Positions 43,904 to 64,000 are shown, numbered from the stretch's first letter. The stretch is 64,000 bases of DNA from Fidelibacterota bacterium (GCA_049975265.1 JBNGDF010000008.1:1-64000); one strand, 5' to 3'. The notes: a model not told the origin generated them from the sequence alone. Translations and numbers: made by a program.

Positions 43904-45151
43904 ATGAAATTGTCCAGGTATTCGATGGGTGTTGGGGACCGCTTTGGTCGGGAAGGGGTTGCCCAGTTAGCCGCGATGTTCAAAGCCAGTGAACAGGGTA
44001 TTCCGATAACACCTGTTTGGAATAAATCGTTTCGCGAACATCAGATCATTGGTAGTACACCGGCGGACACCCGTCGGGCGGCGGATGAAGCGGTGCGCTC
44101 TGCGGGATGGCAGGCGGCTTACTTTGTGGATGGCGACCATATCGATCTGAAAACGGTGGACGATTTTATGCAATCCAGCGATTTTTTTACCATGGATGTC
44201 GCCGACGAAATCGGCAAGCCGGTGGAAGATGCAAAATTGCGGGAGTATATGCAGTTTTGTGAGCGGTTTCACCGGTCGTTTGAAATTCCCGGGATTGCGG
44301 AGAAGCTCGACGTCAGCCCCGAGATGGTTCGTCAGATTGCGCAACAGTATCTGGCGGGTATTCTGGAGGCAGAAAAAATCTACCGGCATATCGCAGAACG
44401 GGTAAAGAAGCCCTTTGTGCTGGAGTTGTCCATCGATGAAACAGAGCAGCCGCAGCGTCCGGTGGAGCTTTTCTTTATTCTGGCGGGTGCCGCCTGGTGC
44501 CGTCTGCCGCTGGATACGATCGCGCCGAAGTTCAGCGGTCGTTTCAATAAGGGGGTCGATTATGTGGGTGATGCCGCCCGGTTTGCCCGGGAATTTGAGG
44601 AGGACATTCTGGTGGTCAAATTTGCCGTACAGGAATTTGGATTGCCGGCATCGTTGAAACTGAGCGTCCATTCCGGCAGCGATAAATTTACCCTTTATCC
44701 GATTATTCGGAAAATTTTGCATAAACAGAACGCCGGAGTTCACCTGAAGACGGCGGGTACCACCTGGCTCGAAGAGCTGATTGGTATCGCTGCCGCTGGT
44801 GGCGCCGGTCTGGATCTGGCGAAATCGATCTATTCCGATGCCTATGACCGCCAGGCGGAGCTGGTAAAACCCTATGCTCCGGTGCTGGATATTCACCCCA
44901 AACGTCTGCCCTCTCCGGCGGATGTCCGGACCTGGAGCAGTGCTGAATTCGTTGGTGCATTGCGGCATGTTCAGACGGAAAAACGGTATAATCCCGACTT
45001 TCGCCAGCTCCTGCACGTAGCATATAAAATTGCCGCCGAGCGGTGCACAGAATTCGACCGGGCGCTCCAGCATTATGTCGATTTTATCGCTCCCAACGTG
45101 ACCGAAAACCTCTTTGAACGCCATATCAAGCCGCTGTTTTTAGAGGAATAA
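43904..45151 (+). CDS. uxaE: Tagaturonate/fructuronate epimerase family protein
   Basis: SMGVGDRFG, DGDH, ELSIDETE, GRFNKGVDY, KLSVHSGSDKF, HLKTAGTTWLE. Confidence 0.88.
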   Translation: MKLSRYSMGVGDRFGREGVAQLAAMFKASEQGIPITPVWNKSFREHQIIGSTPADTRRAADEAVRSAGWQAAYFVDGDHIDLKTVDDFMQSSDFFTMDVADEIGKPVEDAKLREYMQFCERFHRSFEIPGIAEKLDVSPEMVRQIAQQYLAGILEAEKIYRHIAERVKKPFVLELSIDETEQPQRPVELFFILAGAAWCRLPLDTIAPKFSGRFNKGVDYVGDAARFAREFEEDILVVKFAVQEFGLPASLKLSVHSGSDKFTLYPIIRKILHKQNAGVHLKTAGTTWLEELIGIAAAGGAGLDLAKSIYSDAYDRQAELVKPYAPVLDIHPKRLPSPADVRTWSSAEFVGALRHVQTEKRYNPDFRQLLHVAYKIAAERCTEFDRALQHYVDFIAPNVTENLFERHIKPLFLEE

Positions 45152-48100: not shown

Positions 48101-49291
48101 CCGGATAACGGGCGTATTTGTGTGAAAATCGCGCCGGACGACGACGCCCCGGACAGCTGGGTAGAGATCAGTGTCAAGGACAGTGGGGTCGGAATCAGTG
48201 CCAAAAATCTGGAACATCTTTTTGAACGGTTTTATTATGCCGGCAACGGACAACATACCAGCCGGCTCAGTTCCGGATTGGGTCTGGCGCTGACCAAACG
48301 GCTGGTGGAGCTGCATCACGGGAGGATCCTCGTTGAGAGTCAGGAGGGCTGCGGAAGCACCTTCCGGATACAATTGCCCGTGAGTCGTGAAAAGTTGAGC
48401 GATGATGAGATTATCACCGATATTTCGGAGACAGCTCATTTTCACCGGATTGTGGAAGCGGGCAGTGAGGATCCGGTGGTATCGGAAGATACGGTGGAAA
48501 AGACGGCGGACTCCAAAGACGTCGCCGAGCGACCGCTGGTGTTGCTCGTTGAAGATGACAGTGAGCTGCGGGCGTACCTGCGTAAATCGTTATCTCAGAA
48601 ATACCGTATCGCGGAAGCACGGGATGGCGCCAAGGGCTTTGAGAAGGCGAGAATGCTGGTGCCGAACATCATTATCAGCGATGTCATCATGCCGAATCTT
48701 GATGGGATTGAGATGTGCCGGCGGCTCAAAGATGAAATTACCACCAGCCATATTCCGATTATTCTGTTGACGGCGAAGGCGACCATCGAGGCAAAAATCC
48801 AGGGAATTGAAACCGGTGCTGACGATTATATTGAAAAACCTTTCCATTTCCGCTTTCTGAATGCCCGCATCAAGAATATTCTGAAATCCCGGGAGAAATT
48901 GCGGGAGCGCTACCGCAAGGAGCTGATTCTTGAGCCGGAAGAGGTCTCGGTGACCTCGACGGACGAAAAGCTGTTGATGAGTATCCGCAAACTCGTGGAA
49001 GCGCGCCTGGACGATCCGACTCTGGAGGTCGGACATCTTGCCGTTGAAACCGGTTTGAGCCGCACGAACCTGTTCATCAAGCTGAAAGCGCTGACCGGTT
49101 ATTCGCCCGGGGAGTTCATCAGAACCATCCGTCTGGAAAAAGCCGCCCAGTATCTGGAGAAGAGCGATATGACCGTCAGCGAGATCGCCTACGCCGTGGG
49201 ATTCAAATATCCCAAATATTTCAGTACCTGCTTCCATCAGTATTTCGGTCGGACACCTTCCGAATACCGGGAGCAGGTGGAAATTCGGTAA
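45170..49291 (+). CDS. Hybrid two-component system (beta-propeller sensor, Y_Y_Y, TM, HisKA, HATPase, REC, AraC)
   Basis: Many D..G.LWIGT..GL repeats; YTNLNPGRYVFRVK; AHELKAPLTLI; GLGLAL; SDVIMP; VGFKYPKYFS. Confidence 0.96.
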   Translation: MRRFNQFKKINQFLLFIGLVTGFLYAAVPKISFEHLTIKNGLSDGRIDCITQDSYGFLWFGTQDGLNRFDGYSFTVFDHDIFDSTSISSNWIRCVAEDREGNLWIGTEGGGLNRFDYEMEQFTRWFNQPNDPESLNDNFVRVILVDSYGDLWIGTRTGLVQFDYEKGRFVPFHHEPYNVNSPAFNENITDLIEDSHRNLWIGTQDGIYHYNRQKGTVRHWRFSSEADRISAIFEDSYGDVWVGSRYTGIKVFDRKTRSFTLFQNEPDDAASLSSNEVKDIFEDRDNNLWIATIQGGLNLYDRSSGKFRHFINNPDDPSSLSSNSVRTIYQDRTGVMWFGMDGSGIDHYVKDRQKFQLYHNRIGNPYNLSNNTILSIYEDREGLLWLGTEGGGLNRLDLKSSSCVHYLADKDDQRSISSDQVTCIFEDGDGHFWIGTKEGLNRFERRQNSFTRHYNTNTPITSNNFINIIQEDDRGRLILGTNNGIVCFDKSSGEFEHLDFDESGVLNSEVVLTLLVDNGILWIGYLRSGLVAYDLQEKRYTHFRSDPARSDRLSNNFVQYIYRDNRGHLWVATRKGLNCKIPGSDGFRQYTKAEGLPSNVIVGILEDRNGCLWLSTTNGLSKFDPRQETFTNYDIDDGLQGNQFWINSCFRSPSGELFFGGNNGFNSFYPERLEALSNPLVPPIFITRIVVREKPYPYSVTSNFSERPPVEFAHNENRISFEFAALDFTRPGKNQYAYRLEGFDDKWISAGTRRYANYTNLNPGRYVFRVKGSNNDGVWNETGTSFSFIIKTPFWKTGWAILLYVIGLIGIVYGINVYTLNLVRARHDLKIERMEKEQVQKLNKFKLQFFTDVAHELKAPLTLIQAPLDEILHSGRKNLPYKKELQLMYRNVKYLTRLVYQLLTFRRAEQKRMTLKASQGDLIQFAREVFELFAESARKHHIDYRFEAQVSPLNGWFDWEKLEEILINIIDNAFKYTPDNGRICVKIAPDDDAPDSWVEISVKDSGVGISAKNLEHLFERFYYAGNGQHTSRLSSGLGLALTKRLVELHHGRILVESQEGCGSTFRIQLPVSREKLSDDEIITDISETAHFHRIVEAGSEDPVVSEDTVEKTADSKDVAERPLVLLVEDDSELRAYLRKSLSQKYRIAEARDGAKGFEKARMLVPNIIISDVIMPNLDGIEMCRRLKDEITTSHIPIILLTAKATIEAKIQGIETGADDYIEKPFHFRFLNARIKNILKSREKLRERYRKELILEPEEVSVTSTDEKLLMSIRKLVEARLDDPTLEVGHLAVETGLSRTNLFIKLKALTGYSPGEFIRTIRLEKAAQYLEKSDMTVSEIAYAVGFKYPKYFSTCFHQYFGRTPSEYREQVEIR

Positions 49292-49421: not shown

Positions 49422-50792
49422 ATGAAAAAAATGTTACTATGTCTGAGTGTTCTTTTTGCGGCGGGTACGCTGCTGTATTCGCAGATATTTGTTCCACCCG
49501 GCGAGGGTACTCTCCATCAGGCTCTGGCTGATGCTGCCGACGGTGATGTTTTTCAGCTGGCGCCCGGTGAGACCTATACCGAAACCGGCTATACGGAGTT
49601 TGGCAATATTGTCGGGATGGATATCGCCATCGAAGTTGATGGCGACGGTTCGGAAAAGGCGGTTGTAAAGATGCAGACTGAGCGTGAGGGTGAAGAGACC
49701 ATTGCCTTTTTTAATGTTGGTGATCAAGCCTCACTGACCCTGCGGGGTGTCGAATTCGACGGCGCCTTAAACGATCTTCCCAATGCCAATTATCTGGTTA
49801 CCTTTACAATGGGAGAGGAGCCCACACCGATTCTGGTTAAAAAGATAACAGTTGAAAACTGCTATATCCACAATCTGGTGGACGATGTAATCGCCGCCGG
49901 TAACGGTGATATGAAGTATAATGTGGTCGTGGATTCCACGATCGTTGATAATGTCGTTATCACGAATACCTGCACCTCGATTTATTACAAATATGCCGGG
50001 GCAAATTTTATCTCCCTGACCAATTCGACCATCCACAACATCAACAGCTACGGTCTGCGGATCGCCGGTCCGGTGGAGAGCGGTCTGCCGGATAATACGC
50101 CCGTCGTCGTGATTGATCATACGACCTGGTATAAAATCGGGGTCGGCGACGATCAGCGCGAGACGATTCAGGGTGAGAAGGGACCTTTGCTGAATCCCTG
50201 GACGGTTTCGAATTCGATTTTTGTTGATCAGGTAAATAAAGACCGGACTTTTATTAATATTAAGGATAATCCCGGTCCTGGTGAAGAGAATGACTATCTG
50301 TCAACCATTGCCAGTATCTGTTTCTGGGATATCGGACAGGTGAATTTCAGGAGCCACACGGTGATGGATACATTGCGGATGGATCCGGGTTTTGCCGATC
50401 CTGATAACGGGGATTTTACCCTGCCGGCGCATTCACCACTCTTTTCTTTGGGGACGGATGGTGGTCCCATCGGTGATCCCCGCTGGTATATCGGGGTTTA
50501 TGCGATTGAAGATGATGTTCCGGTGGTCAGGTCTTTTGCATTGCATCAGAACTATCCGAATCCCTTTAATCCGGTGACGCAAATTTCCTTTGACTTGGCA
50601 AAATCGGGCTGGACAACGCTGGCGGTCTATGATTTGATGGGACGCGAGCTGGCGGTGATTGCCTCTGAAAACATGCGTCCCGGGAGTTATGAATACCGTT
50701 TTGATGCCAGCGGTTTGAGCTCGGGGGTCTATTTTTACCGGCTCAGTACCGCCGGTCAGACACTCACCAGGAAGATGATGTACCTTGAATAG
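49422..50792 (+). CDS. Secreted acidic beta-helix-like protein (DUF4957/DUF5123-like) with C-terminal sorting domain
   Basis: Signal peptide; stacked V.N/I.N repeats; DPGFADPDNGDFTL...IGDPRW; LHQNYPNPFNP...SSGVYFYRL. Confidence 0.7.
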   Translation: MKKMLLCLSVLFAAGTLLYSQIFVPPGEGTLHQALADAADGDVFQLAPGETYTETGYTEFGNIVGMDIAIEVDGDGSEKAVVKMQTEREGEETIAFFNVGDQASLTLRGVEFDGALNDLPNANYLVTFTMGEEPTPILVKKITVENCYIHNLVDDVIAAGNGDMKYNVVVDSTIVDNVVITNTCTSIYYKYAGANFISLTNSTIHNINSYGLRIAGPVESGLPDNTPVVVIDHTTWYKIGVGDDQRETIQGEKGPLLNPWTVSNSIFVDQVNKDRTFINIKDNPGPGEENDYLSTIASICFWDIGQVNFRSHTVMDTLRMDPGFADPDNGDFTLPAHSPLFSLGTDGGPIGDPRWYIGVYAIEDDVPVVRSFALHQNYPNPFNPVTQISFDLAKSGWTTLAVYDLMGRELAVIASENMRPGSYEYRFDASGLSSGVYFYRLSTAGQTLTRKMMYLE

Positions 50793-50829
50793 AATCATTC
50801 TTTCTCCTTTGGTTTCTCCTTTTCTGAAA

Positions 50830-50876
50830 GGTTTGGGCGTCCCGGCTAATGGTCTCATTGCCGGGACGCACAGACC
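50830..50876 (+). other. Long intergenic stem-loop without a U-tract
   Basis: ggtttg-g-gcgtcccggc...gccgggacgc-a-cagacc. Confidence 0.65.
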
Positions 50877-50937
50877 AATTCCCGAGGCGGGAAATAGCGG
50901 GCTGGCTGAATAATTTTATGAATGGATGTAAACGGAT

Positions 50938-52623
50938 TTGAGACTACGAAAATTTATTAAATACGGGCTGTTTTGCGGAGTGGGAATAAGTATGGTTGTG
51001 ATCGTTGACGGCAAACCGCTGGCGTTCCCGACAGCTGAGGGTGCCGGTCGTTATACCATCGGCGGCAGGGGCGGTGTTGTTTACGAGGTGACCAATCTGA
51101 ATGACAGCGGTCCGGGCAGTCTGCGGGAGGCGGTGGAAGCCTACGGCCCCCGTACCGTGGTGTTTCGGGTATCCGGGACAATCCAGTTGGAAAGTGAGCT
51201 GAAAATCGGCAATGCCTATATCACTATCGCCGGACAGACGGCGCCCGGAGACGGCATCTGTCTGCGGGACTATCCGGTCAGAATCGACGCTCATAATGTT
51301 ATTATCCGGTACATGCGCTTCCGGTTGGGTGATGAAACACCGGATGGTGGCGATCACGATGCTCTCTGGAGCCGTTACCGCTGGAATATCATCCTCGACC
51401 ACTGTTCTGCCAGCTGGAGCGTGGATGAGACTATGTCGATTTATGGGACCGACAGTCTGACGATTCAGTGGTGCCTGATTTCCGAAAGTCTTTACATGTC
51501 CCATCATGAAAAAGGTGCTCACGGTTACGGCGGCATCTGGGGCGGCAGGGATGTTAGTTTTCATCATAACCTTTTTGCCCACCATTCCAGCCGGACGCCC
51601 CGTTTTGCCGGTGGCGAGACGCCGGTTTGTGTCAATGTCGATTTCCGGAACAATGTGATTTATAACTGGGGTTTTAATAATATTTACGGCGGTGAAGGGG
51701 GCACCATCAATATTGTTGCCAATTACTACAAACCCGGACCTGCAACCAAGTCCAATGTCCATGACCGGATTTTCGATCCCACGGGAAGCGAGGGGCGGTA
51801 TTACATTGTTGATAACTATATGGACGGATATCCCGATATAACAGCGGACAATTGGAGCGGAGTCGATGGAAGTTATGCCTATGCACCGGAAATTAAATCG
51901 GATTCCGCATTTCCGGCGGTGGCGCTTGAATGGCAGCCGGCGGAAGAGGCTTACGAACTGGTACTGGACAATGCGGGTGCCACCTTTCCCGTACGGGACA
52001 CGGTGGACAAACGGGTCATTCGTGATGTTCGCAACGGTACAGCCACCTTTGATGGCTATTACTATGAGATCAAACAGGGTTTTAGCGATACAAGCGTAGT
52101 GCGGGGGATTATTGATTCTCAAAATGATGTCGGTGGTTGGCCCGCCCTGCAGAGCCTTGAAGCGCCTCTGGACAGCGATCATGACGGTATGCCTGATCTG
52201 TGGGAGGTGTCGCAGCTGCTCGATCCTGACGATCCGGAGGACCGCAATCGAACCGATGAAAAGGGGTATACCGCATTGGAAAATTATCTGAACAGCATCG
52301 TCGACGAGTATGTCAGCAGCATGGCGGCAGAAGCCGCCCTTCCGGCAGGATTTCAGGTGGGTCAAAATTATCCCAATCCCTTCAATCCGACGACAACGCT
52401 GCAGTTCTTCGTGCCCAAATCCGGGAACATGTCGATCATGGTTTACGATCTCGCCGGACAGCGAGTGAAAAATCTCTACACCGGATTCTGTCCAGGTGGC
52501 TATCATTCGGTTCGCTGGCAGGGAGATAATGACCGGGGTTATGCGGTTTCCAGCGGAGTCTATTTAGCTGTGTTCAGATTTAACAGAGTACAGGAAGTCA
52601 TCAAGATGCAGTTGATGCGTTAA
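50938..52623 (+). CDS. Secreted pectate lyase (PL1-type) with C-terminal FlgD-Ig sorting domain
   Basis: LAFPTAEGAG..T.GGRGG, NLNDSGPGSLR, IAGQTAPGDGI, DHCSASWSVDE, HHNLFAHHSSRTPR, DSDHDGMPD, NYPNPFNP. Confidence 0.9.
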   Translation: MRLRKFIKYGLFCGVGISMVVIVDGKPLAFPTAEGAGRYTIGGRGGVVYEVTNLNDSGPGSLREAVEAYGPRTVVFRVSGTIQLESELKIGNAYITIAGQTAPGDGICLRDYPVRIDAHNVIIRYMRFRLGDETPDGGDHDALWSRYRWNIILDHCSASWSVDETMSIYGTDSLTIQWCLISESLYMSHHEKGAHGYGGIWGGRDVSFHHNLFAHHSSRTPRFAGGETPVCVNVDFRNNVIYNWGFNNIYGGEGGTINIVANYYKPGPATKSNVHDRIFDPTGSEGRYYIVDNYMDGYPDITADNWSGVDGSYAYAPEIKSDSAFPAVALEWQPAEEAYELVLDNAGATFPVRDTVDKRVIRDVRNGTATFDGYYYEIKQGFSDTSVVRGIIDSQNDVGGWPALQSLEAPLDSDHDGMPDLWEVSQLLDPDDPEDRNRTDEKGYTALENYLNSIVDEYVSSMAAEAALPAGFQVGQNYPNPFNPTTTLQFFVPKSGNMSIMVYDLAGQRVKNLYTGFCPGGYHSVRWQGDNDRGYAVSSGVYLAVFRFNRVQEVIKMQLMR

Positions 52624-52696: not shown

Positions 52697-55600
52697 ATGT
52701 TGCGTAGACAATATATGGCGGGTGGTATTCGCTATATTCTGATTGTGATGCTTTTGATGGGTTTTACAATGACCTTTGCCCAGACCCGCAGCCGGATCGG
52801 CGGCACCGTCCGCGATGCCAAAACGGGGAGACCGCTGGTCGGCGTCAATGTCATTGTGGAAGGTACGGAACTGGGTGCCGCCACTGATGAGAACGGACAA
52901 TACATTATTATCAATGTGCCGGTGGGAACCTACCGGGTTCGGGCGTCTATGATCGGATACGAGACTATGGTCATGAAAGAGGTGCTGGTTTCGGCGGAGC
53001 GGATGACGAAGCTGGATTTTCATCTGGTTCAAACCGTCATTGAGGGCAGTGTCGTCGAAGTGACGGCAACCCGCCACGTGCTGCACAAGGAGGTTTCCAG
53101 TACCCAGATGGTGGTTACGACGGAACAGATGCAGGATGCTTCAGGCATTCGGGAGATCAATGCTTTTTTGTCGAAAATGCCCGGTGTGTCCGAGGAGAAC
53201 GGCTATCTGACGATTCGCGGCGGCTCCGCCGATCAGACCGGCATGATGATGAACGGTATTTCCTATATGAACGCCGCCGCCGGCAATGCCGAAACCAGCA
53301 TCCCCATGAGTGCGATAGAGCAGGTTGCGTTGCTCTCGGGCGGTTATAATGCCGAGTACGGAAATTTTCGCTCCGGACTGATCAATGTTACCACGAAATC
53401 AGGGACGAAAGACAGTTATCACGGTACGGTATCCTATTCCCGGGACCAACCCCATATCCGGCGGTTCGGTGGTTCCTTTTATGATCAATCATGTCCGGCT
53501 GTGGCGCCCTATATTGATCCGGAACAGTGTATGGATATGTGGATCAAAGCCGCCAATAATTTTAATCTGAGCAATCCGAAATATCCGGCGAATGCCACCG
53601 ATTATTTCTATCTCGCCAACTGGATGCACATGACGATTCCCGATTATGAGGGGCTGGCAGCGCTTTCCGATTCCGTGAAAGAGGTGATTGGTTATTATGA
53701 ACTGACCGATGAGCAGAAAAAGGCGTTTAAAGAGCACCACATGAAGGAGGAGTATTCGGACTGGAATCTGGATGGCGGATTCGGGGGTCCGTTGCCTTTT
53801 GTCGGCAAAGCGCTGGGTGATGCGACCTTTTATATTTCCCATAATTCCAAGGAACGCCACTACATCCAGCCGGTCTCCCGGAAAAGCGATCTGCTCTCCA
53901 CGACACTCCTGACCCTGAAAATGCAGCCGCTGAACAACCTGACCCTGACTCTAAACGGTTTGTATAAGCACCAGATCGGAGTCAGTCCGATCCGACCGCC
54001 CTGGGGCGATTTCCCCGATGCCAGTCGGGAGGGTGGCTTTATGCCCCAGGACAACCTCAAATTTTTCACCCGTACCCAAAATCCTGACTATTTTTACGAC
54101 CCGCCTTTCTTTCCGAAAATCGAGCAGAAAACCCTGGTGGGCGGAATTACCATCAATCATATTTTGAACAAATCAACTTTTTGGGAATTGAGTCTGAATG
54201 GCTCACAGATTCGCGATTTTTCGGAAGTTGGCAATACCCGTGATTCCACGGTCATCACCCATTTCGGACCCTTTCCGGTGACCGAGATGCCCTACGGAAA
54301 ACTTCAGTATGGCAATAACCGGATAATCGGAATTTTCGGTGAGGACACCCTGAATTATAACTATCCCTCCTATGACGCGCTGCCTGGAGTCACCAACCGT
54401 CGTTTCCGGCGCAAGGAGGGGGACCTGTATACCAATGTCAAGCTACATCAATACCGGGCGAAATTCGACCTGAATTCCCAGATCGGAATGGTGCATTATC
54501 TGAAAGCGGGGCTGGAGTACAATCTGTTTATCCTCAATCATAATCTCTGGAATAAATGGAATGAGAATTATTATAACGTTTACGAATATAACTACTACAG
54601 AAAACCGAGTCAGACGGGACTATACTTTCAGGATCAGATCACCCTGGAGTCTATCGTAGCCAATCTGGGTGTTCGTTTTGATTATTACTATGGCGGCGGC
54701 GGTGAGTGGCCTACCGGTGATCCCTTTAACGAAGAGATGTTTCTGCCCCAGAAGGTCGCCGAAGATACCGTCCTCTTCCGATATCTGGAGGAGGGCAGAT
54801 CCTACATCTGGGACCTCTGGGAAGCCTATGACGATTCGGTGGATCCCGGTTTTCTGCAACCAATCAAAAATCACTTTACCATCAGTCCCCGGATTGGAAT
54901 CTCCTTTCCCATTACGGAGAATTCGAAATTCTATTTCAATTACGGACATTTTCGCTCCAATCCGCCCTACTATTCCATGTATCTCTATCGGTATCGGTAT
55001 GATAAAAACGGGCTCTACGATATGTCCAATCCCAATCTCGATCCGCCGCGGACGATTTCCTATGAGCTGGGCGTGATGTACAATTTCTGGAAAAGCTGGC
55101 TTCTGAAAATTTCAGGATATTCCAAGGATGTGACCGGACAGCACGGGGAGGTCACCTACAAGACCAATCGCTTGGATTATGATATGTGGGTGAACAATGA
55201 ATACGAAGACATTCAAGGGATGGAGATCAATCTTTCCAAAAGCGATAACAGCTGGCTGACGGGCTGGATAAATTTCAACTATATGCTGAAAAAAGAGGGG
55301 CTCACCGGCAAAGAGGAAATCACCGAAATCACCCTGGACAATTATGCCGAGGACCTGTATCAGGGACAGGAAAGCCGGGCGTTGCCGCAACCGAAACTGA
55401 ATGCCAACATCACCTTTCGCTCGCCGGAAAAGTGGGGCCCCGCCATCGGTCGCTTTTACCCGCTGGGCAGTCTCAGTCTGACACTGTTTGGTGAATGGGA
55501 AGCTGGCGACTATTTTACGGCAAATCCAACCGGCATACCGAACCTGAACAATAATATGCAATGGCCGGATTACTACATGGTTGATCTCAAAGCCGCCAAA

Positions 55601-55951
55601 AAGATCAGGTTCGGTAAGGTCACCTCCACGATTTTTGTCGATGTCAGCAACTTTTTCAATTTCAAGGTCAGCCTGATGCACAGGGGGTACTGTTTTGCCA
55701 AGGATTCCGGTGATGATTTTGAAGATTGGCAGGACTTTCTGAATTATATCAAGACTCTGCATCTGCCGGACTGGGCATCCTCGGAATATGACAATGTCCG
55801 CAACGAAGAGGCAGGGTACTATATCCCCGGTAATGATAAAATCGGTGAACTCCGGTCTGAGAAAAAACCGTATATAGATGATCCGAATTATAGCTGCTGG
55901 ATTTACGGACAGCCGCGGGATATCTGGGTCGGTATCCGGTTTGATTTTTAG
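52697..55951 (+). CDS. TonB-dependent receptor with N-terminal carboxypeptidase-regulatory-like domain
   Basis: GTVRDAKTGRPLVGVNV...GAATDENG, IRGG, GGYNAEYG, SPRIGISFPI, C-terminal GIRFDF; start ATG 52697 after AGGAG. Confidence 0.92.
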   Translation: MLRRQYMAGGIRYILIVMLLMGFTMTFAQTRSRIGGTVRDAKTGRPLVGVNVIVEGTELGAATDENGQYIIINVPVGTYRVRASMIGYETMVMKEVLVSAERMTKLDFHLVQTVIEGSVVEVTATRHVLHKEVSSTQMVVTTEQMQDASGIREINAFLSKMPGVSEENGYLTIRGGSADQTGMMMNGISYMNAAAGNAETSIPMSAIEQVALLSGGYNAEYGNFRSGLINVTTKSGTKDSYHGTVSYSRDQPHIRRFGGSFYDQSCPAVAPYIDPEQCMDMWIKAANNFNLSNPKYPANATDYFYLANWMHMTIPDYEGLAALSDSVKEVIGYYELTDEQKKAFKEHHMKEEYSDWNLDGGFGGPLPFVGKALGDATFYISHNSKERHYIQPVSRKSDLLSTTLLTLKMQPLNNLTLTLNGLYKHQIGVSPIRPPWGDFPDASREGGFMPQDNLKFFTRTQNPDYFYDPPFFPKIEQKTLVGGITINHILNKSTFWELSLNGSQIRDFSEVGNTRDSTVITHFGPFPVTEMPYGKLQYGNNRIIGIFGEDTLNYNYPSYDALPGVTNRRFRRKEGDLYTNVKLHQYRAKFDLNSQIGMVHYLKAGLEYNLFILNHNLWNKWNENYYNVYEYNYYRKPSQTGLYFQDQITLESIVANLGVRFDYYYGGGGEWPTGDPFNEEMFLPQKVAEDTVLFRYLEEGRSYIWDLWEAYDDSVDPGFLQPIKNHFTISPRIGISFPITENSKFYFNYGHFRSNPPYYSMYLYRYRYDKNGLYDMSNPNLDPPRTISYELGVMYNFWKSWLLKISGYSKDVTGQHGEVTYKTNRLDYDMWVNNEYEDIQGMEINLSKSDNSWLTGWINFNYMLKKEGLTGKEEITEITLDNYAEDLYQGQESRALPQPKLNANITFRSPEKWGPAIGRFYPLGSLSLTLFGEWEAGDYFTANPTGIPNLNNNMQWPDYYMVDLKAAKKIRFGKVTSTIFVDVSNFFNFKVSLMHRGYCFAKDSGDDFEDWQDFLNYIKTLHLPDWASSEYDNVRNEEAGYYIPGNDKIGELRSEKKPYIDDPNYSCWIYGQPRDIWVGIRFDF

Positions 55952-55996
55952 CAAAGGAAAGAACATGACCGCCAATCATAAAGATATGGAGAGTTC

Positions 55997-58174
55997 ATGA
56001 AGGCTTTTGAAAAGAGTCGCAGATTAAAAGCGGGCGGAACGGCATTTTGGGTTGTAAGGCTGCTTCTCGTTGGAATGGTGTTCGCCCAGACGCAGCCGGA
56101 GCTGGAAACAGCCACCGTCCAGATGGGACGGGTCTGGGTCGGTGTCAAAGCCAATGGCGATAAAGGCAATTTCGAATTCCGCTACCCCTTTTTCCCCAAC
56201 GATTACGACGTACTCGGCGTGCGGGGTCAGCAACAGGATTTATGGGGCGGTGCAGGCTTCCGGCTGGTGACCACCAACTGGTGGGACCCGGTCTATCCCG
56301 ATTCGCTGCACAAAGTGGCTATTTTCGGACCGACGAACGAGTATATGCCTCAGGGAAAAGTCGTTGAAGGCGGCGAGCTGACCAATTATGCCCGCTTTGG
56401 GTATCCGGAGCAGTATGTTGATTTCGAACCGCTGTCTCTGCCGGAATTCAGTCCGACCGCTCCCGATATGCTGGGCGATTACAGTTACGATCAGGTGGTA
56501 GAGGTGACCTCGGAAAATATTCTCGGTGTGCAGCTCCGCCGCAAGCTGATGGCTTGGAGCCAGAGCCTGAATGATGATTACGTCATTCTCGATGTGGAAC
56601 TGACCAACGTCAGTGGCGATACGCTGCCCGATTTTTATATTAATGTGGAATCCAACGGGGAAAACACCTATCATTCCACTGGCTCCAATCCGACCCTGAG
56701 AGGAGAAGAGGCGATCCAGACATCCTATACCTGGCAGCACTATTACGGCGGTCGGGTCGGCGACAGCCTGCGGGTCTTTTATGAATACAGCGCTGACGAT
56801 CCCAACATTGTCGGCGATGATATGGGCAAACCGGCGATTAGCCAGAACGGGCGCCTGGTTTTTCCGAAATTTGTCTGGTATTCGATCCTGCACGCATCAG
56901 AACAGCCCTATACGAAACCGGAGGATGACGAAGATGATTTTCTGCAGCCAAAGGTGACCTACATCGGCAAAAGCAACCTGATTCCCTACAATGATGAGAG
57001 CGATGAATTCGGCAGTAAAAATTTCTGGGCGATTCGCGGCGCCTATTCAGAATTCTTACCCATGAGCGGTAATACCTGGCCGGGTACTTATCACGGGGTC
57101 AATAGCGACGAGTACAATTCGCCGGATTTTTCGGCTCTGGGCGCCGTTTCCAAAGATAATAATAATTCCAAGATGTATTCCAGCTTCGGTCCCTACACCT
57201 TTCTGCCGGGTCAGAAAATCCGGCTGGTGTTTGCCAGTGGCTATTCCGGTCTCAGTCTCGAAAAGGGCAAGGAGATCGGACGCAAGTGGCTGAACGGCAC
57301 TCTGGAAGATCCACCCAATCTACCGGATGATCATACCGGGTACCTCCCAGCCAATTTTGTTTTTCCCGCTGGCGCCACGGAAATGGACCGGCGCAAAGAC
57401 CGCTGGATCAGTACCGGAATTGATTCGGTCATGGCGAGCGCTTCCCGGGCGAAGTGGAATTTTGACCATGGCTATAAAATTCCCCTTTCACCGCCGCCGC
57501 CCAGCCGGATAGATATTACCGGTCTCGGAACGGGCGTAGAAATAAAGTGGGTAGATATAGAGGCGGAAGCCATGCCGAATTTTGCCGGCTATCGGATTTT
57601 GCGGCGGATATCCAACCTGGATTCGGTCTTTTATGATGTTGTCTACAATTCTGATTCCGATGATAAGGCGGCGGAACATCTTTTTGTTGACACTACGGTC
57701 GTTGTGGGCGCGCAGTATTACTACTATGTACAGGCAAAAGCCCGCGTTGCACCGGATGATCTGACCGCCCATGCTTCGACGCGCGGAAAGATCATGTACA
57801 GTAACCGGGTGCTGCATCCCAATCTGACGCCGGTGTTTCCGCCCTATTTCTCCCAGGACGACCTCAGCAAAATCCGGATTGTCCCGAATCCCTACAATAT
57901 CAACGATCCGCTCTTACGTGATGTCGGATGGACCGATCGCCGCGGCTTGATGTTTCTGAATCTGCCTCCGGAGGTGACTATCAAAATCTTCACTGAAAAC
58001 GGCGACTGGGTGCAGACGCTGGAACATTACAGCCCGCCCACTGTGCTCGCCGGCAATAAATTCTGGGATATGATCACCCGCAACCAGCAGGTGATTCACA
58101 GCGGGGTCTATATTGCGGTTTTTGAGACGCCGGACGGGCAGACATCCATGCAAAAATTTCTGGTAATCCGTTGA
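55997..58174 (+). CDS. Secreted protein of unknown function with FN3-like domain and IVPNPY-type C-terminal sorting domain
   Basis: Signal peptide without lipobox Cys; PPPPS...GYRILR...YYYYVQA; IRIVPNPY...FLNLP...IKIFT..G...WDMITRNQQVIHSGVY...KFLVIR. Confidence 0.75.
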   Translation: MKAFEKSRRLKAGGTAFWVVRLLLVGMVFAQTQPELETATVQMGRVWVGVKANGDKGNFEFRYPFFPNDYDVLGVRGQQQDLWGGAGFRLVTTNWWDPVYPDSLHKVAIFGPTNEYMPQGKVVEGGELTNYARFGYPEQYVDFEPLSLPEFSPTAPDMLGDYSYDQVVEVTSENILGVQLRRKLMAWSQSLNDDYVILDVELTNVSGDTLPDFYINVESNGENTYHSTGSNPTLRGEEAIQTSYTWQHYYGGRVGDSLRVFYEYSADDPNIVGDDMGKPAISQNGRLVFPKFVWYSILHASEQPYTKPEDDEDDFLQPKVTYIGKSNLIPYNDESDEFGSKNFWAIRGAYSEFLPMSGNTWPGTYHGVNSDEYNSPDFSALGAVSKDNNNSKMYSSFGPYTFLPGQKIRLVFASGYSGLSLEKGKEIGRKWLNGTLEDPPNLPDDHTGYLPANFVFPAGATEMDRRKDRWISTGIDSVMASASRAKWNFDHGYKIPLSPPPPSRIDITGLGTGVEIKWVDIEAEAMPNFAGYRILRRISNLDSVFYDVVYNSDSDDKAAEHLFVDTTVVVGAQYYYYVQAKARVAPDDLTAHASTRGKIMYSNRVLHPNLTPVFPPYFSQDDLSKIRIVPNPYNINDPLLRDVGWTDRRGLMFLNLPPEVTIKIFTENGDWVQTLEHYSPPTVLAGNKFWDMITRNQQVIHSGVYIAVFETPDGQTSMQKFLVIR

Positions 58175-58194
58175 TGTGCAAAGGAGAAGAATCA

Positions 58195-59211
58195 ATGCGA
58201 CTCAATAAAATGACCGGATATGTACTGATTTTACTCTTTGTGTCTTTTACGCTGACGGATGCCCAGGTGGGTCTGAAAAAGGTGGCGCAGAGCACTATGA
58301 ATTTTCAGCTGGTCAGCGTCTCGCCGCGTGCCAGCGCGCTGGGTGAAGCCTTCATTACCCTGGGCACCGGTGCCGAGAGTATCTTTTTCAATCCCGCCGG
58401 AATCGCCGAATCTGAAAATCGTCTGGATGTCAAACTGTACATGACCCACTGGATTGCGGATATTGATTACTTAGCCGGTGCGCTCAGCTGGAATCTGGGA
58501 ACTTACGGTACAGTGGGACTGAGCGCTCTGAGTGTGGATTACGGTACCATCTACGGGACGAGTCTGGTATCCGGTACTGAGATGGTACACTATCCGGCTG
58601 GCTACCGGGATTTGGGAACGGTCAGCAATGTCGGTGCCTATTCGGTGGGTGTCTCTTATGGAAAAGCCGTCAGCACGCAGTTTTTTATCGGCGGCAATGT
58701 TCGTCTGGCAGGTCAGAATCTCGGACAGAGCTATCTGGAATCCGGACGGAAGGACAATAACGCCACCAGACTGGTTTTCGACGCCGGCGTGAAATATTAT
58801 ACCGGTCTGCGCAGTTTTCGCTTTGGAATGGCGATCCGCAATTTTTCTTCCAATATCAAGCGGGAACGGATTTACGAGCAGCTGCCGCTGATCTTTATCA
58901 TGGGTGCCGCTATTGATCTGTTTGAAATGGTGTCACCGGGTGGGGAACGAAACAGCAACCTGACATTGGCGGTGGATTTTTTACATCCCAATAATTACTC
59001 CGAGCGGATGAATATCGGACTCGAATATCTGGCTTTCGGAAGGCTGGCATTAAGAGCCGGGTATCAGACCAACCAGGATGTGGCTTCCTGGTCGGCGGGC
59101 TTGGGGGTCAATGCCAACCTCGCCGGCAGGACGGTGGCGTTTGACTATTCCTATTCCAATTTTGATATCTTTGATGGGGTCAATCGCCTCTCAATCGGAT
59201 TTAATTTTTAA
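58195..59211 (+). CDS. PorV/PorQ-like outer-membrane beta-barrel
   Basis: F..VSVSPRASALGEAF...IFFNPAG, LRAGY, FDYSY, C-terminal IGFNF. Confidence 0.85.
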   Translation: MRLNKMTGYVLILLFVSFTLTDAQVGLKKVAQSTMNFQLVSVSPRASALGEAFITLGTGAESIFFNPAGIAESENRLDVKLYMTHWIADIDYLAGALSWNLGTYGTVGLSALSVDYGTIYGTSLVSGTEMVHYPAGYRDLGTVSNVGAYSVGVSYGKAVSTQFFIGGNVRLAGQNLGQSYLESGRKDNNATRLVFDAGVKYYTGLRSFRFGMAIRNFSSNIKRERIYEQLPLIFIMGAAIDLFEMVSPGGERNSNLTLAVDFLHPNNYSERMNIGLEYLAFGRLALRAGYQTNQDVASWSAGLGVNANLAGRTVAFDYSYSNFDIFDGVNRLSIGFNF

Positions 59212-59224: not shown

Positions 59225-60439
59225 ATGAAGCTTCAACATCGCATCACTATTTCAGCGCTAGCGGGTCTGATTCTGATTACCTGCGTGCAATTTTGCGGCG
59301 GACGGCTGCAGAGTGACTATCTGAGCTGGGCAACCCGCACAGCCGATTCCTTTATTGAGCGTGCGCCGGATTACAAAATTACCTACGAAGAAAATCGCGC
59401 CAAGCACAAATGGCATTACGAGCAGGGCTTGATGCTGAACGCACTGCACAGACTCTGGCATATGACAGGGGATCGGTGTTATTTTGACTTTATCCGGCAG
59501 AATATCGATCTGTATGTCCAGGAAGATGGCTCGATCCTGACCTATGATCAGGAGGATTTCAAGCTGGATGATATCGGTCCGGGAAGAACATTGCTGCGAC
59601 TCTACGAGGAGGTCGGTGACGAAAAGTATCACAAGGCGGCACAGCGGCTGCGTCGCCAGCTGGAGAGGCAACCACGCACGTCGGCGGGCGGTTTCTGGCA
59701 TAAGAAAATTTATTCCTGGCAGATGTGGCTGGATGGACTCTATATGGCGGCGCCCTTTTATGCGGAATATGAAAAAAGATTTGCCGCATCGCCGGATTAC
59801 GCCGATGTCGTTCGGCAATTCCGGCTGATCTATACACAAACCCGTGATCCTGAAACCGGTTTGCTGTATCACGGCTGGGATGAGAAGCGGCAGCAGATCT
59901 GGGCGAATCCACAGACCGGATTGTCATCGCATTTCTGGGGGCGTGGTCTCGGCTGGTATATGATGGCGCTGGTGGATGTACTGGAGATTTTACCGGCGGA
60001 GACAACCGGCAGGGAGAATCTGTTGAAGCAACTGAATGATCTTGCACAAGCCATATTAAAGGTGCGGGATCCGGAGTCAAAAGTCTGGTATCAGGTGCTG
60101 GACCAGGGGGATCGTGAGGGCAACTATCTGGAATCTTCCGCTTCGGCGATGTTCATTTATAGTTTTGCCAAAGGTGCGAATAAAGGCTACCTGCCGGCTG
60201 AGTATCGCAAAATTGCCAAAGAATCCTTTCGGGGCTTTATCGCTGAATTCGTCCATGTGAATGAGGACGGTTTGGTGGATGTGCGGCACGTCTGCTCCGG
60301 TGCCGGTTTGGGCGGTAAGCAGCAGCGCGACGGCAGCTTTGAATATTATATCAGCGAACCGCAGCGCACCAACGACTGCAAAGCCGTGGGTCCTTTTATT
60401 TTGGCGGCGCTGGAACTGACGAAAGGACGCGGGAAGTAG
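59225..60439 (+). CDS. GH105 (GH88/105) unsaturated rhamnogalacturonyl/galacturonyl hydrolase
   Basis: WHYEQG, LDDIGPG, GGFWHKKIY..QMWLDGLYM, HGWDE, WGRGLGW, ESSASAM; start ATG 59225. Confidence 0.93.
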   Translation: MKLQHRITISALAGLILITCVQFCGGRLQSDYLSWATRTADSFIERAPDYKITYEENRAKHKWHYEQGLMLNALHRLWHMTGDRCYFDFIRQNIDLYVQEDGSILTYDQEDFKLDDIGPGRTLLRLYEEVGDEKYHKAAQRLRRQLERQPRTSAGGFWHKKIYSWQMWLDGLYMAAPFYAEYEKRFAASPDYADVVRQFRLIYTQTRDPETGLLYHGWDEKRQQIWANPQTGLSSHFWGRGLGWYMMALVDVLEILPAETTGRENLLKQLNDLAQAILKVRDPESKVWYQVLDQGDREGNYLESSASAMFIYSFAKGANKGYLPAEYRKIAKESFRGFIAEFVHVNEDGLVDVRHVCSGAGLGGKQQRDGSFEYYISEPQRTNDCKAVGPFILAALELTKGRGK

Positions 60440-60442
60440 TAG

Positions 60443-62044
60443 ATGAACCGGTACGGCTATATCGGGTACTTATTTCTCGGAGCGGTCATGCTGGTGATCG
60501 TGTTAAACTGTGCCAGAGAAACCACTACCTATAGCAATCCCATCATTCATGCCGATTATTCCGATCCGGATGTCATTCGTGTCGGGGACGATTTTTATAT
60601 GGTGTCATCCAGTTTCGCCCATACGCCGGGGTTACCGGTTCTGCAATCGAAGGATTTAGTGAACTGGAAAATTATCGGTCACGCAATAGAGAATTTGCCA
60701 CACAGAATTTACGAGAAACCGCAGCACGGGAAAGGCGTCTGGGCGCCGAGTATCCGGTACTATCAGGGCGAGTTCCGGATTTATTACGGTGATCCCGATT
60801 TCGGGATTTACATGGTTCGCGCTAAAAATCCCGCCGGTCCCTGGAAAAGACCGGTATTAATAAAAGCCGCCCAAGGGCGCATCGATCCCTGCCCCTTCTG
60901 GGATGATGACGGCAGCGGTTACCTGGTCCACGCCTGGGCGAAAAGCCGTTCCGGATTCAACAGCATTCTTACACTCTGCCGCCTGAATGAAGACGGGACC
61001 CGGATCACCGACGAGGGAACCACGATTTTCGATGGGCACACAAATCATCCGACCATCGAGGGACCGAAAATGTACAAACGGGATGGTTTTTACTATATCT
61101 TCGCCCCGGCGGGTGGTGTGAAGGAGGGCTGGCAGACGGTGCTGCGTTCGAAAAATATCTACGGTCCCTATGAGGATAAGATTGTTCTCGAGCAGGGCAG
61201 CACCAGGATCAACGGTCCGCATCAGGGTGCCTGGGTGCAGACCCAAGCCAGGGAATCGTGGTTTATCCATTTTCAGGATAAGGCTGCCTATGGACGGATT
61301 GTTCATCTGAATCCGGTGAAATGGGTTGCCGGCTGGCCGGTCATGGGAACAGATTTCGATGGCAACGGTATCGGCGAACCGGTGGCGGAATACAGGCTGC
61401 CATTGCCGGATGAAAAGGAAATCTTTGAAATTCAGACCGGTGATGAGTTTGAATCTGAGAACCTGGGACTGCAGTGGCAGTGGCAAGCCAATCATTCAGA
61501 TGAGTGGTATTCGCTTACCGACAAGCCGGGTTATCTGCGGCTGTATTCTGTTGAATTGCCGGAAGATAACGAAAATCTGTGGGATGTCGCAGCGATTCCG
61601 GCTCAGAAATTTCCGGCGGAAGAATTCGAAGTCACGACACGGTTGAGTCTCATGAGTGCCGGCGGAGACAGAGCCGGACTGGTGGTAATCGGATTGGATT
61701 ATGCTTGTCTCGCAATCTCCCGCAACGGCGCTGATTATTTTCTCACCTTTGCCGAATGTAAAAACGCAGACGCCGGGACAGCCGAAGTGGTTGTCGAGAG
61801 GATTCCGGTGCAGAATGCGGAGATTTTTCTCGGCGTTGCCGTTCGGAAAGGGGGACGCTGTTCCTTCAAATACAGCGAAGACGGTGCCCGATTCCATTCC
61901 ATCGGGCGGGAATTCCAGGCGCGCAAGGGTAAATGGGTTGGCGCTAAAGTCGGGTTGTTTTGTGCCCGCCAGGGTAACAAAAGCGGCGGCTATGTGGATA
62001 TTGATTTTTTCAGAATCGACCCTGGAGATCAGGGAAATGTATAA
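60443..62044 (+). CDS. GH43 glycoside hydrolase (beta-xylosidase/arabinosidase-like) with C-terminal ConA-like domain, possible lipoprotein
   Basis: NPIIHADYSDPDV, WAPSI, IDPCPFWD, IEGPK, HQGAWV; N-terminal VLNC. Confidence 0.93.
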   Translation: MNRYGYIGYLFLGAVMLVIVLNCARETTTYSNPIIHADYSDPDVIRVGDDFYMVSSSFAHTPGLPVLQSKDLVNWKIIGHAIENLPHRIYEKPQHGKGVWAPSIRYYQGEFRIYYGDPDFGIYMVRAKNPAGPWKRPVLIKAAQGRIDPCPFWDDDGSGYLVHAWAKSRSGFNSILTLCRLNEDGTRITDEGTTIFDGHTNHPTIEGPKMYKRDGFYYIFAPAGGVKEGWQTVLRSKNIYGPYEDKIVLEQGSTRINGPHQGAWVQTQARESWFIHFQDKAAYGRIVHLNPVKWVAGWPVMGTDFDGNGIGEPVAEYRLPLPDEKEIFEIQTGDEFESENLGLQWQWQANHSDEWYSLTDKPGYLRLYSVELPEDNENLWDVAAIPAQKFPAEEFEVTTRLSLMSAGGDRAGLVVIGLDYACLAISRNGADYFLTFAECKNADAGTAEVVVERIPVQNAEIFLGVAVRKGGRCSFKYSEDGARFHSIGREFQARKGKWVGAKVGLFCARQGNKSGGYVDIDFFRIDPGDQGNV

Positions 62045-62142: not shown

Positions 62143-64000
62143 ATGAAGAAAAGTGCGATTTTTGGCGTAATCTGCATCGTATTCGCCTTGCTGGCTTTTA
62201 TACCTTTGAAAGCCCAGTGGCAGGTATACGATGGCAGTGTATTGCCGGCTGAGACCGGCAGCAGCGGCACTCTGGATATATCGAGTGTCAGCGATGACTC
62301 ACCCGGTCTTGACATGGTACAGGAAATTATTGATGATCCCGATATTCCGGGTAACAAAATTTTCAAGTACCTGCAGCCCAACGGCAAGACGAATTTCCGG
62401 CATTACTTTAGTGACACATATGCGGACTCGGCTTTTACGATTGTCGCCAGAGTAAAGGGAGATACGGCTTCGGTATTTGATCGTGCCTTTGATTTTGAAT
62501 GGCGCAACGGCAATGCCGGTACCCGGGATAAACTGCTGCTCTGGACCCAGGATAATCTGCTGGAGTTGGATAATAACGGTGCCAAGATTGATCCGGGAGT
62601 CAGTATTTCCGATTGGCATACTTATCGGATTACCGTGTTTGGAGATACGGCGACGATCTTCATTGATGAGAATCCGGTGCCGGTTCACAAAGCCGGTACG
62701 AGCAACTCCACTTCGGACAAATATTTCAAGATGGGCGACGGTTCCGGCGATGCCATCGGTGGCTATATGGACTGGTGTGCGCTGGATACTTCTGGGGCTT
62801 ATGCACCCGGTGAGGGTACACCTATTCCGGCGGAACTGTATGTTGATGGTACCCCGATCCCACCTTCTTGGAAGGTATACGACGGAAGTGTGCTACCAGG
62901 CGAAACAACCGGTGAGGGCGATAATCTGGATATATCGAGTGTCAGCGATGACTCACCCGGTCTTGACATGGTACAGGAAATTATTGATGATCCCGATATT
63001 CCGGGTAACAAAATTTTCAAGTACCTGCAGCCCAACGGCAAGACGAATTTCCGGCATTACTTTAGTGACACATATGCGGACTCGGCTTTTACGATTGTCG
63101 CCAGAGTAAAGGGAGATACGGCTTCGGTATTTGATCGTGCCTTTGATTTTGAATGGCGCAACGGCAATGCCGGTACCCGGGATAAACTGCTGCTCTGGAC
63201 CCAGGATAATCTGCTGGAGTTGGATAATAACGGTGCCAAGATTGATCCGGGAGTCAGTATTTCCGATTGGCATACTTATCGGATTACCGTGTTTGGAGAT
63301 ACGGCGACGATCTTCATTGATGAGAATCCGGTGCCGGTTCACAAAGCCGGTACGAGCAACTCCACTTCGGACAAATATTTCAAGATGGGCGACGGTTCCA
63401 GTGATGCCATTGGTGGCTATATGGATTGGTGTATCCTCGATGTGACCGGTGCTTATGCGCCCGGCGAAGGCGCGCCGATTCCGGCGTATCTCTACGTTGA
63501 TGGCGGACCGCCGCCGGCAAAATGGCTGGTCTATGATGCCGGTGTATTGCCCACTGAGACCGCAGATGCCGGTGGTGACACGCTGGATATATCGGATATC
63601 AGCGATGATTATCCGGGAACCGGCATGGTGGCGGAGATTATTAACGATCCGGATATTAGCGGGAACAAGTTATTCAAGTACCTGCAGCCGGATGGCAGAC
63701 TGACTTTCCGCCACTATTTTGATGAAAGTTATGAAGATTCGAACTTCACCATTGTAACCCGGATTAAGGGTGAAAACGATGCCGCTTATGACCGCGCCTT
63801 TGATATCCGCTGGGACAACGCCAATGCCGGCACCCGCGATGAATTGCGTATCTGGCCGGCGGACAGTACTCTGGAGCTGGAAAAAGCGGATGTTTCCATT
63901 AAACTGGACGTGGATTTTTATGTCTGGCACACTTTCCGAATAGTGGTCAATGGTGATCTTGCCGAAGTCTATCTGGATGAAAATCCGGAGCCGGTTATCA
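62143..64000 (+). CDS. Large secreted protein with at least three tandem ~218-aa beta-sandwich-like repeats; runs off the window
   Basis: Not in the ORF track. AGGAGG precedes ATG 62143: MKKSAIFGVICIVFALLAFIPLKA-QWQVYDGSVLP...DWHTYRITVFGDTATIFIDENP...; repeats begin W.VYD at ~62218, ~62869 and ~63523; no stop to 64000. Confidence 0.85.
   Translation, partial: MKKSAIFGVICIVFALLAFIPLKAQWQVYDGSVLPAETGSSGTLDISSVSDDSPGLDMVQEIIDDPDIPGNKIFKYLQPNGKTNFRHYFSDTYADSAFTIVARVKGDTASVFDRAFDFEWRNGNAGTRDKLLLWTQDNLLELDNNGAKIDPGVSISDWHTYRITVFGDTATIFIDENPVPVHKAGTSNSTSDKYFKMGDGSGDAIGGYMDWCALDTSGAYAPGEGTPIPAELYVDGTPIPPSWKVYDGSVLPGETTGEGDNLDISSVSDDSPGLDMVQEIIDDPDIPGNKIFKYLQPNGKTNFRHYFSDTYADSAFTIVARVKGDTASVFDRAFDFEWRNGNAGTRDKLLLWTQDNLLELDNNGAKIDPGVSISDWHTYRITVFGDTATIFIDENPVPVHKAGTSNSTSDKYFKMGDGSSDAIGGYMDWCILDVTGAYAPGEGAPIPAYLYVDGGPPPAKWLVYDAGVLPTETADAGGDTLDISDISDDYPGTGMVAEIINDPDISGNKLFKYLQPDGRLTFRHYFDESYEDSNFTIVTRIKGENDAAYDRAFDIRWDNANAGTRDELRIWPADSTLELEKADVSIKLDVDFYVWHTFRIVVNGDLAEVYLDENPEPVI
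62271..63399 (+). repeat. Two apparently identical 475-bp direct repeats, 654-bp period (62271-62745 and 62925-63399)
   Basis: Both start tctggatatatcgagt and end gacggttcc; the shadow ORFs 62299..62688 and 62953..63342 translate identically. Confidence 0.9.

Follow-up and report, generated by a model that had tools for sequence, protein, structure and literature searches.

Among described systems, the locus reported here is closest in layout to SusC/SusD (RagA/RagB), in which enzyme genes and a hybrid two-component regulator surround a TonB transporter that has a fixed downstream partner, and of which a genome has many paralogs linked to different substrates. SusD has a helical-repeat fold. 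The lid mechanism of SusC/SusD is described in the available part of PMC13543919. Two other related arrangements are known from type IX secretion. In PorZ-PorQ and PorU-PorV, the cargo keeps its C-terminal sorting domain and stays on a barrel of the PorV/PorQ family (PMC10202324, available part). Type B cargo, as in SprB-SprF and PG1035-PorP, is anchored uncleaved by its cognate PorP/SprF barrel, with the cargo gene beside its own barrel gene and many cognate pairs per genome; the available part of the source on this cargo (PMC9143113) does not mention a TonB receptor. Anchoring by a cognate barrel is also treated in the available part of PMC10994853. We analysed 64,000 nucleotides (below, the window) of Fidelibacterota bacterium GCA_049975265.1, corresponding to contig C8:1-64000 of a 2.86 Mb genome in 66 contigs (95.3% complete). 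A pectin locus in the window carries three genes, termed here the triad, for a TonB-dependent receptor, a secreted protein of 725 aa (the partner), and an outer-membrane barrel.

The three genes are consecutive open reading frames on the plus strand with short gaps between them, and this observation was confirmed. The triad shares with SusC/SusD all the features of layout listed above. Unlike in SusC/SusD, its receptor fails the SusC model, its partner is a mostly beta non-lipoprotein without a SusD match that ends in a type IX tail, and a private barrel is added as the third gene. The triad is not SusC/SusD by membership, although it probably works like SusC/SusD.

The receptor (open frame 52637-55951, likely start at ATG 52697 after a purine-rich ribosome site) contained CarboxypepD_reg, Plug, and TonB barrel domains according to Pfam. 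With the SusC model TIGR04056, it scored 53.3 bits against a cut-off of 368.25, and in the N-terminal part only, which places it outside SusC/RagA. Its structure model had a predicted local distance difference test score (pLDDT) of 80.3, and the Foldseek matches were TonB-dependent transporters. Extracellular insertions were located at residues 271-375, 686-745, and 1005-1094 (numbering of the 1104-aa frame from 52637).

For the 725-aa protein, no Pfam family was found at E≤0.01, no sequence match was found in PDB, and the protein atlas returned unnamed clusters only. Neither this protein nor 52 aligned homologs matched SusD. No lipoprotein cysteine was present in its first 45 residues, and a loose lipobox pattern was found in 1 of 218 homologs. 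A hydrophobic N-terminal helix up to residue 31, seen in both the sequence and the model, is a putative signal peptide. The first-pass annotation had described a protein that follows the receptor and is neither SusD nor a lipoprotein, and had expected searches with SusD/RagB models to be negative; both points held. In the 95.3% complete host genome, PF07980, PF14322, and PF12771 likewise had no matches, with a positive control in B. thetaiotaomicron. A profile search with the family retrieved 4728 clusters at E≤0.001 (clusters at 50% identity). The nearest named homologs belonged to Marinimicrobia (Fidelibacterota), followed by KSB1, Calditrichota, and Ignavibacteria.

The structure model of the 725-aa protein, built from 77 homologs (pLDDT 89.8, predicted template modelling score 0.87), consisted of a beta-supersandwich with a helical linker, a proline-rich hinge with an FN3-like domain, and the sorting domain (Table 1). 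The FN3-like domain had been proposed earlier; it was supported by the strands of the model and by Foldseek FN3 matches, and homolog P0118 has PF00041 (FN3) on record. The supersandwich and linker resembled the N-terminal modules of GH94, GH116, GH65, and GH15 (Z 14-16.6, root-mean-square deviation (rmsd) ~4, 8-12% identity), among them 5nz7 (Z 16.3, rmsd 4.2, 274 aligned) and 7w2t (Z 15.8, rmsd 4.0, 275 aligned). Unlike in these enzymes, FN3 and the sorting domain stand in place of the (alpha/alpha)6 catalytic barrel, which is absent from the 725-aa model, and the alignments were limited to the enzymes' N-terminal module. The earlier proposal of a capture protein had named a catalytic carbohydrate-active enzyme fold as evidence to the contrary; the fold is indeed one common to such enzymes, but their catalytic barrel is absent. 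The PL4 rhamnogalacturonan lyase also combines a supersandwich with FN3; no PL4 enzyme was among the 50 structural matches listed for the model. Conservation was highest in the helical linker, FN3, and tail (0.69-0.75 vs. 0.58-0.66), and the supersandwich diverged strongly between loci of different substrate class. Invariant Asp, His, and Arg residues were present in the pectin subfamily. Many residues that are fixed in this subfamily, R76, H248, D267, Y322, and D371 among them, were lost in 102 distant homologs (20-29% identity), which keep the scaffold residues.

The last ~105 residues superposed on the C-terminal domain of PorU (Z 10.5, rmsd 2.5, 88 aligned) and on PorZ (Z 12.1, rmsd 2.1, 85 aligned), which bears out the C-terminal sorting domain recognised in the first-pass annotation. 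PorZ was also the top Foldseek row for the whole model, with a low whole-chain TM. Thus, the protein has both the putative signal peptide and the C-terminal beta-sandwich sorting domain of type IX cargo. Its tail was below every cut-off of the PorZ, type A, and type B models and fell outside type A (15.6 bits vs. 23, TIGR04183/PF18962) as well as type B (17.7 bits vs. 27, PF13585). The host genome encodes ten proteins with this kind of tail, 581-1219 aa in length, one of them split. They scored 76-142 bits with a leave-one-out subtype profile vs. 6-20 bits with a type A profile trained on 18 neighbours in the host genome, and the best non-member protein of the genome reached at most 30.4 bits on the subtype profile. 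The PorZ model matched all ten tails weakly, the type A model nine, and the type B model TIGR04131 one, weakly. Of the 97 tail-bearing reading frames listed in the host genome, ten were of the subtype, 75 clearly of type A, and 12 intermediate. All ten subtype proteins were encoded in loci with a receptor and a barrel, eight directly before the barrel, one with one gene between, and one at 7 kb; a weak barrel-like gene lay directly downstream of 1 of the 75 clear type A proteins. The tail is a distinct sorting-domain subtype tied to private barrels.

The barrel (338 aa, likely start at ATG 58195) is a member of the PorV/PorQ family NF033709, with 154.7 bits at a cut-off of 90; the other nine triad barrels of the host genome scored 170-215 bits. 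It is an ortholog of neither PorV (36.3 bits, cut-off 250; NF033710) nor PorQ (63.9 bits, cut-off 220; NF033711). The best housekeeping PorV candidate lies elsewhere, at C6:29015-30301 (184 bits, below the cut-off; 92 bits with Pfam PorV). In the barrel tree, the paralog barrels formed one side of a branch with support 29/74, which decides neither for nor against their grouping. The triad is similar to PorZ-PorQ and PorU-PorV in that its tail is closest to PorZ by profile and structure and its barrel scores higher with PorQ than with PorV. However, those are single housekeeping pairs. Of the triad pairs, a genome has about ten paralogs, every one of them accompanied by a receptor in a nutrient locus, and none reaches the PorZ and PorQ cut-offs. 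Unlike for type B cargo, PorP/SprF (PF11751) was not found in the host genome, and triad tails were far below type B cut-offs. The first-pass description of a PorV-like barrel was therefore right about the family but not about housekeeping PorV. As for its suggestion that the protein is held by its own PorV paralogue, the link to a private barrel stands, whereas the analogy to PorV is replaced by PorZ-PorQ and SprB-SprF.

Other proteins with atypical tails were encoded beside their own PorV-family barrel without a receptor, at C5:143223, C23:16193, C2:67200, C29:14242, and C6:25773. One of these genes is situated in the sprA cluster and is followed by two barrels. The receptor-less barrel neighbours include a second C25 peptidase and, next to the best PorV candidate, an inactivated M6-like protease.

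The synteny of the triad was counted in the 80 best of 102 genome loci and the 80 best of 191 metagenome loci. Each set was chosen for close relatives, and some loci may belong to both. In the genome loci, the receptor ended at most 400 bases upstream of the partner in 66 of 68 assessable cases. The two misses were due to an N-gap and to a longer spacer, and the receptor was still adjacent in both. The barrel was directly downstream of the partner in 78/78. The metagenome loci gave 60/60 for the receptor upstream and 68/68 for the barrel downstream. A pectin enzyme was present in all 44 long related loci, and the flanking genes shuffled. The order of the triad, the conservation of which the first-pass annotation had proposed to survey, was kept in all assessable genome and metagenome loci. 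Because of this and of its ten recurrences in the host genome, the triad is not a chance arrangement. The best 30 tail loci of the phylum, mostly of a large-partner class, all had a barrel in the cluster, which followed the partner directly in 16; in the other 14, including a paralog on host contig C8, a SurA/PPIase-like gene stood between them. Cultured carriers of the pectin triad are Rosettibacter primus 4148-Me, Melioribacter sp. Ez-97, and OK-6-Me.

A fusion of receptor and partner seen in locus L047 was rejected as an artefact of a 100-base N-gap. No fused forms of 1270-3625 aa were scored, which is weak evidence. In a 1604-aa homolog, P0245, the body of the partner is fused to Chlamydia-PMP-like repeats and to a type A tail of the ordinary kind. 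The pectin locus of L074 contains another triad (positions 447-1475), which ends immediately upstream of the matched triad.

The neighbours of the triad paralogs in the host genome included amylases, GH3/CBM9, GH5, peptidases, and phosphodiesterases. Since the paralogs adjoin such varied enzymes, a binding scaffold suits them better than one enzyme family. The triad had been introduced as a glycan uptake module; this is too narrow, as paralogs adjoin peptidases and phosphodiesterases. Four or five large-partner paralogs clustered both in the receptor tree (92/97) and in the barrel tree (85/86). Pairwise distances correlated at 0.80 between receptor and partner and at 0.59 and 0.54 with the barrel, all three values being inflated by shared inheritance. 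Covariation between receptor loops 3-6 and the supersandwich (71-76 triads, effective number ~53) amounted to 2.45 strong pairs per thousand, compared to 1.46-2.12 with partners swapped with relatives; we do not use this signal as evidence because it is mostly phylogeny.

Some paralogous triads deviated from the usual form. The triad at C8:98785-104467 (L092) represents, together with L126-L138, the subfamily with a SurA/PPIase-like gene between partner and barrel. Two triads, C5:39770-42404 and C5:69171-72147, were broken; in all, one receptor and one partner were split into two frames, by either a frameshift or an assembly error. In the rearranged triad at C23:22241-32417 (L095), the partner is followed by two other genes, the receptor, and the barrel; its lamin-tail and OB-fold neighbours suggest nucleic-acid use. 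The S51, M14, and M20 peptidases that flank the triad at C3:151973-167518 (L086) point to a peptide or a substrate of the cyanophycin type.

The host genome encodes SprA (824 bits), PorU (696 bits), a PorV candidate, and TonB. GldL, GldM, and GldN had no match in it, the GldL and GldN searches being without a positive control and divergent homologs being possible, and GldK was matched partially (72.6 bits vs. 350). Hence the ring and motor PorK/L/M/N of a canonical type IX system were not found, and for this reason the secretion system is a reduced type IX. The translocon that the first-pass annotation asked for is present as SprA, PorU, and the PorV candidate, but porKLMN is missing from the matches. 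The subtype tail was found in all 61 genomes sampled from the phylum (603 matches, median 10 per genome; where a genome had a single match, as in at most 8, this may be PorZ-like), and so were SprA and TonB; GldM was found in none. For contrast, 61 genomes were sampled from the phylum of a Melioribacteraceae genome. In 14 of them, GldM exceeded its cut-off, and therefore we regard the GldM search as validated. The tail was present in 0/14 GldM-positive genomes and 33/47 others. The median SusD count was 17 in the GldM-positive genomes and 1 (maximum 6) in the tail-positive ones. As lineage confounds this contrast of GldM, tail, and SusD, it serves as a description and not as a test. Where SusD is rare, the triad prevails, but the two are not mutually exclusive. 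The alternative, SusD-less locus architecture suggested earlier is supported by the lack of a SusD match in the host, but not as a rule, since tail and SusD coexist in other genomes, as given below.

SprA without a recognisable motor (61/61 and 0/61 for GldM) is an observation in its own right; the host encodes about 75 type A cargo proteins for it. A run of exbB-exbD-exbD-tonB-like genes at C29:10166-12285 is convergent with the sprA cluster; the tonB gene was identified by profile, and the other genes were assigned by sequence only. Among the matches listed, TonB lay within ~10 kb of sprA in only the host (G000), G032, and G052 and at ~18 kb in G023. A conserved link between TonB and sprA was rejected, as among these matches the proximity is limited to few genomes, mostly of one family.

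We are somewhat inclined to interpret the triad as a conserved unit of the outer membrane, with the 725-aa protein being exported, anchored on the barrel, and serving the receptor as a non-catalytic partner that captures pectin oligomers. Export through SprA and anchoring on the cognate barrel are highly probable by analogy with PorZ-PorQ and SprB-SprF. Cooperation with the receptor is also likely, judging from the gene order and duplication as a unit. That the protein binds sugar and closes over the receptor like a lid is a putative role that we favour by a small degree. The protein would be exported by Sec and would then pass SprA bound to its cognate PorV/PorQ-family barrel. Its tail would remain uncleaved, as in PorZ-PorQ, SprB-SprF, and PG1035-PorP, with the barrel acting as an anchor in place of a lipid. 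The pair of protein and barrel would work with its own receptor, as suggested by their fixed adjacency and by the matching large-partner clades in the receptor and barrel trees. Hypothetically, the supersandwich could bind the oligomers released by the type A-tailed lyases and present them to the receptor pore.

A number of observations weigh against this interpretation. The supersandwich also matched catalytic supersandwiches at Z 11-12, namely GH174 fucanase at Z 11.9 (rmsd 4.5, 229 aligned) and aldose epimerase-like proteins at Z 11.4 (rmsd 4.2, 220 aligned), so that, judged by its fold alone, the protein could be an enzyme. H299, H366, D274, and D313 were retained in 62-70% of the 102 distant homologs and may point to a metal or catalytic site that these proteins have in common. 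The receptor loops form large, well-folded extracellular subdomains in the model, and for this reason the receptor may not need a lid. Loci L130 and L133 have two tandem partners per receptor. The tree supports were under the starred threshold, and the window receptor forms a long branch. SusD (PF07980) occurs in 12 of the 61 phylum genomes, where it coexists with the tail, and both are present in 17 of the 33 tail-positive contrast genomes. Finally, cargo is reported to be trapped on SprA without the GldL/M/N motor, which is needed for release (PMC10994853, available part); because this motor was not found here, the export route as known would be incomplete and not fully canonical, and its energy source is a problem.

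The same evidence bears on the possibility that the 725-aa protein is a barrel-anchored surface enzyme, its supersandwich active site trimming the substrate at the receptor mouth. The fold is common to carbohydrate-active proteins, including the fucanase and the epimerase-like proteins, and the invariant Asp, His, and Arg residues of the pectin subfamily, some of them kept in distant homologs, would fit an active site. We nevertheless regard an enzyme as unlikely, since the best matches (Z 15-16) are the GH94/GH116 N-terminal modules with no catalytic barrel after them, one and the same architecture adjoins enzymes for starch, beta-glucosides, peptides, and phosphodiesters, and the locus already encodes lyases, an esterase, and hydrolases. 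It is unlikely to much the same extent, if marginally more so, that the protein binds no substrate of its own and is a scaffold or assembly factor, stabilising the receptor loops or gathering the type A-tailed enzymes. The very large loops, the conservation peaks in the helical linker, FN3, and tail, and the SurA/PPIase-like gene within 14 related clusters are consistent with such a factor. However, the divergence of the supersandwich between substrate classes is what would be expected of a specificity domain, and most loci keep one partner per receptor rather than one shared factor.

Two explanations separate the partner from import. The protein and the barrel could be an adhesin holding the cell on polymer particles, co-transcribed with the receptor without contacting it; receptor-less pairs of cargo and barrel are known (SprB-SprF, PG1035-PorP; PMC9143113, available part), and the host genome has such pairs with other atypical tails. 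This is improbable given that the receptor is adjacent upstream in every assessable locus while other surface proteins shuffle, and that the distance correlation between receptor and partner exceeds those with the barrel, inflated as all of them are. Much the least probable is that the receptor is not mainly an importer and supplies TonB energy for the release of the barrel-cargo pair from SprA in a GldLM-less system. Such a role would agree with the lack of GldM matches in all 61 phylum genomes, each with SprA, and with the absence of the tail from the 14 GldM-positive genomes, but the distribution of the motor goes with lineage, some 75 type A cargo proteins lack a private receptor, the subfamily of the receptor varies with the sugar context, and TonB is near sprA in few genomes, mostly of one family, among the matches listed.

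Beyond the pectin locus, the triad is a real, widespread, unannotated three-gene module. Its wider reading as a second widespread nutrient-capture architecture is tentative, and we hold it to be slightly less probable than not as a whole: supersandwich-lidded TonB receptors across Marinimicrobia, KSB1, Calditrichota, and Ignavibacteria would be served by GldLM-less type IX delivery, a private PorV/PorQ barrel, and an unrecognised class of sorting signal, and, at about ten copies in each genome, might do for sugars, peptides, and other polymers what SusC/SusD does elsewhere. A literature search gave no description of a receptor with a sorting-domain partner and a private barrel, most subscription journals being outside its coverage. 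In the available part of a 2026 review of glycoside transporters, PorV, type IX, and Ignavibacteri- do not occur (PMC13543919). SprA and SusCD across FCB phyla are treated in an extended table of PMC12611786 (available part), which may bear on the distribution. In the xylan locus Rmar_1070-1073 of Rhodothermus marinus, a TonB receptor is followed by two hypothetical proteins, the first with a putative Por sorting domain, beside a SusC/SusD pair (Table 1 of PMC6987092). Their order resembles that of the triad, and the available parts of this source give no function or barrel assignment; it is possibly an unrecognised triad.

Tools for finding polysaccharide utilisation loci key on SusC/SusD and for that reason would overlook the loci that several carbon-cycling phyla mainly use for uptake. 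The scale is indicated by a median of 10 tail copies per genome in 61/61 genomes vs. SusD in 12/61. The triad offers a marker for uptake loci and a handle on substrate prediction, and it defines an unannotated protein superfamily (the 4728 clusters) along with a class of sorting signal missed by current models. It joins type IX secretion and TonB import, machines that have been studied apart, and raises the question of how SprA operates where the GldLM motor is undetectable.

The surroundings of the triad agree with the pectin locus claimed in the first-pass annotation. In the window, Pfam and NCBIfam identified UxaE, a PfkB kinase, KDPG aldolase, the hybrid regulator, pectate lyase, PF07470, and GH43, and further pectate lyases, a pectinesterase, and GH28 are encoded just outside it (Table 1). 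A transporter, substrate-specific enzymes, and a regulator are all present, as in a polysaccharide utilisation locus. Promoter and terminator scans gave results near shuffle level.

Table 1. Features of the pectin locus in the window and domains of the 725-aa protein.
Feature	Position	Strand	Evidence
GntR regulator, KDPG aldolase, PfkB kinase, tagaturonate epimerase UxaE	41396..45151	+	Pfam
Hybrid two-component sensor-regulator	45170..49291	+	Pfam
DUF4957/DUF5123 beta-helix protein and pectate lyase, ordinary type A tails on both	49422..52623	+	Pfam, NCBIfam
TonB-dependent receptor, 1084 aa	52697..55951	+	Pfam, SusC model score, structure model, Foldseek, start site
725-aa secreted protein without a name, non-lipoprotein	55997..58174	+	No Pfam or PDB sequence match, structure model
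Beta-supersandwich and helical linker, aa 31-495	56087..57481	+	Structural superposition
Proline-rich hinge and FN3-like domain, aa 496-615	57482..57841	+	DSSP strands, Foldseek FN3 matches
Type IX C-terminal sorting domain, distinct subtype, aa 620-725	57854..58171	+	Superposition, profiles
PorV/PorQ-family outer-membrane barrel, locus-specific paralog, 338 aa	58195..59211	+	NF033709, synteny
PF07470 (GH88/GH105) unsaturated uronyl hydrolase and GH43	59225..62044	+	Pfam, start site
1213-aa repeat protein, type A tail, extends beyond the window end	62143..64000	+	Pfam

The 1213-aa protein, whose gene continues to position 65784 of the contig, contains near-identical repeats of ~220 aa and has weak lectin-like Pfam matches. 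Like the DUF4957/DUF5123 protein, it may serve the locus as a surface protein that binds glycans.

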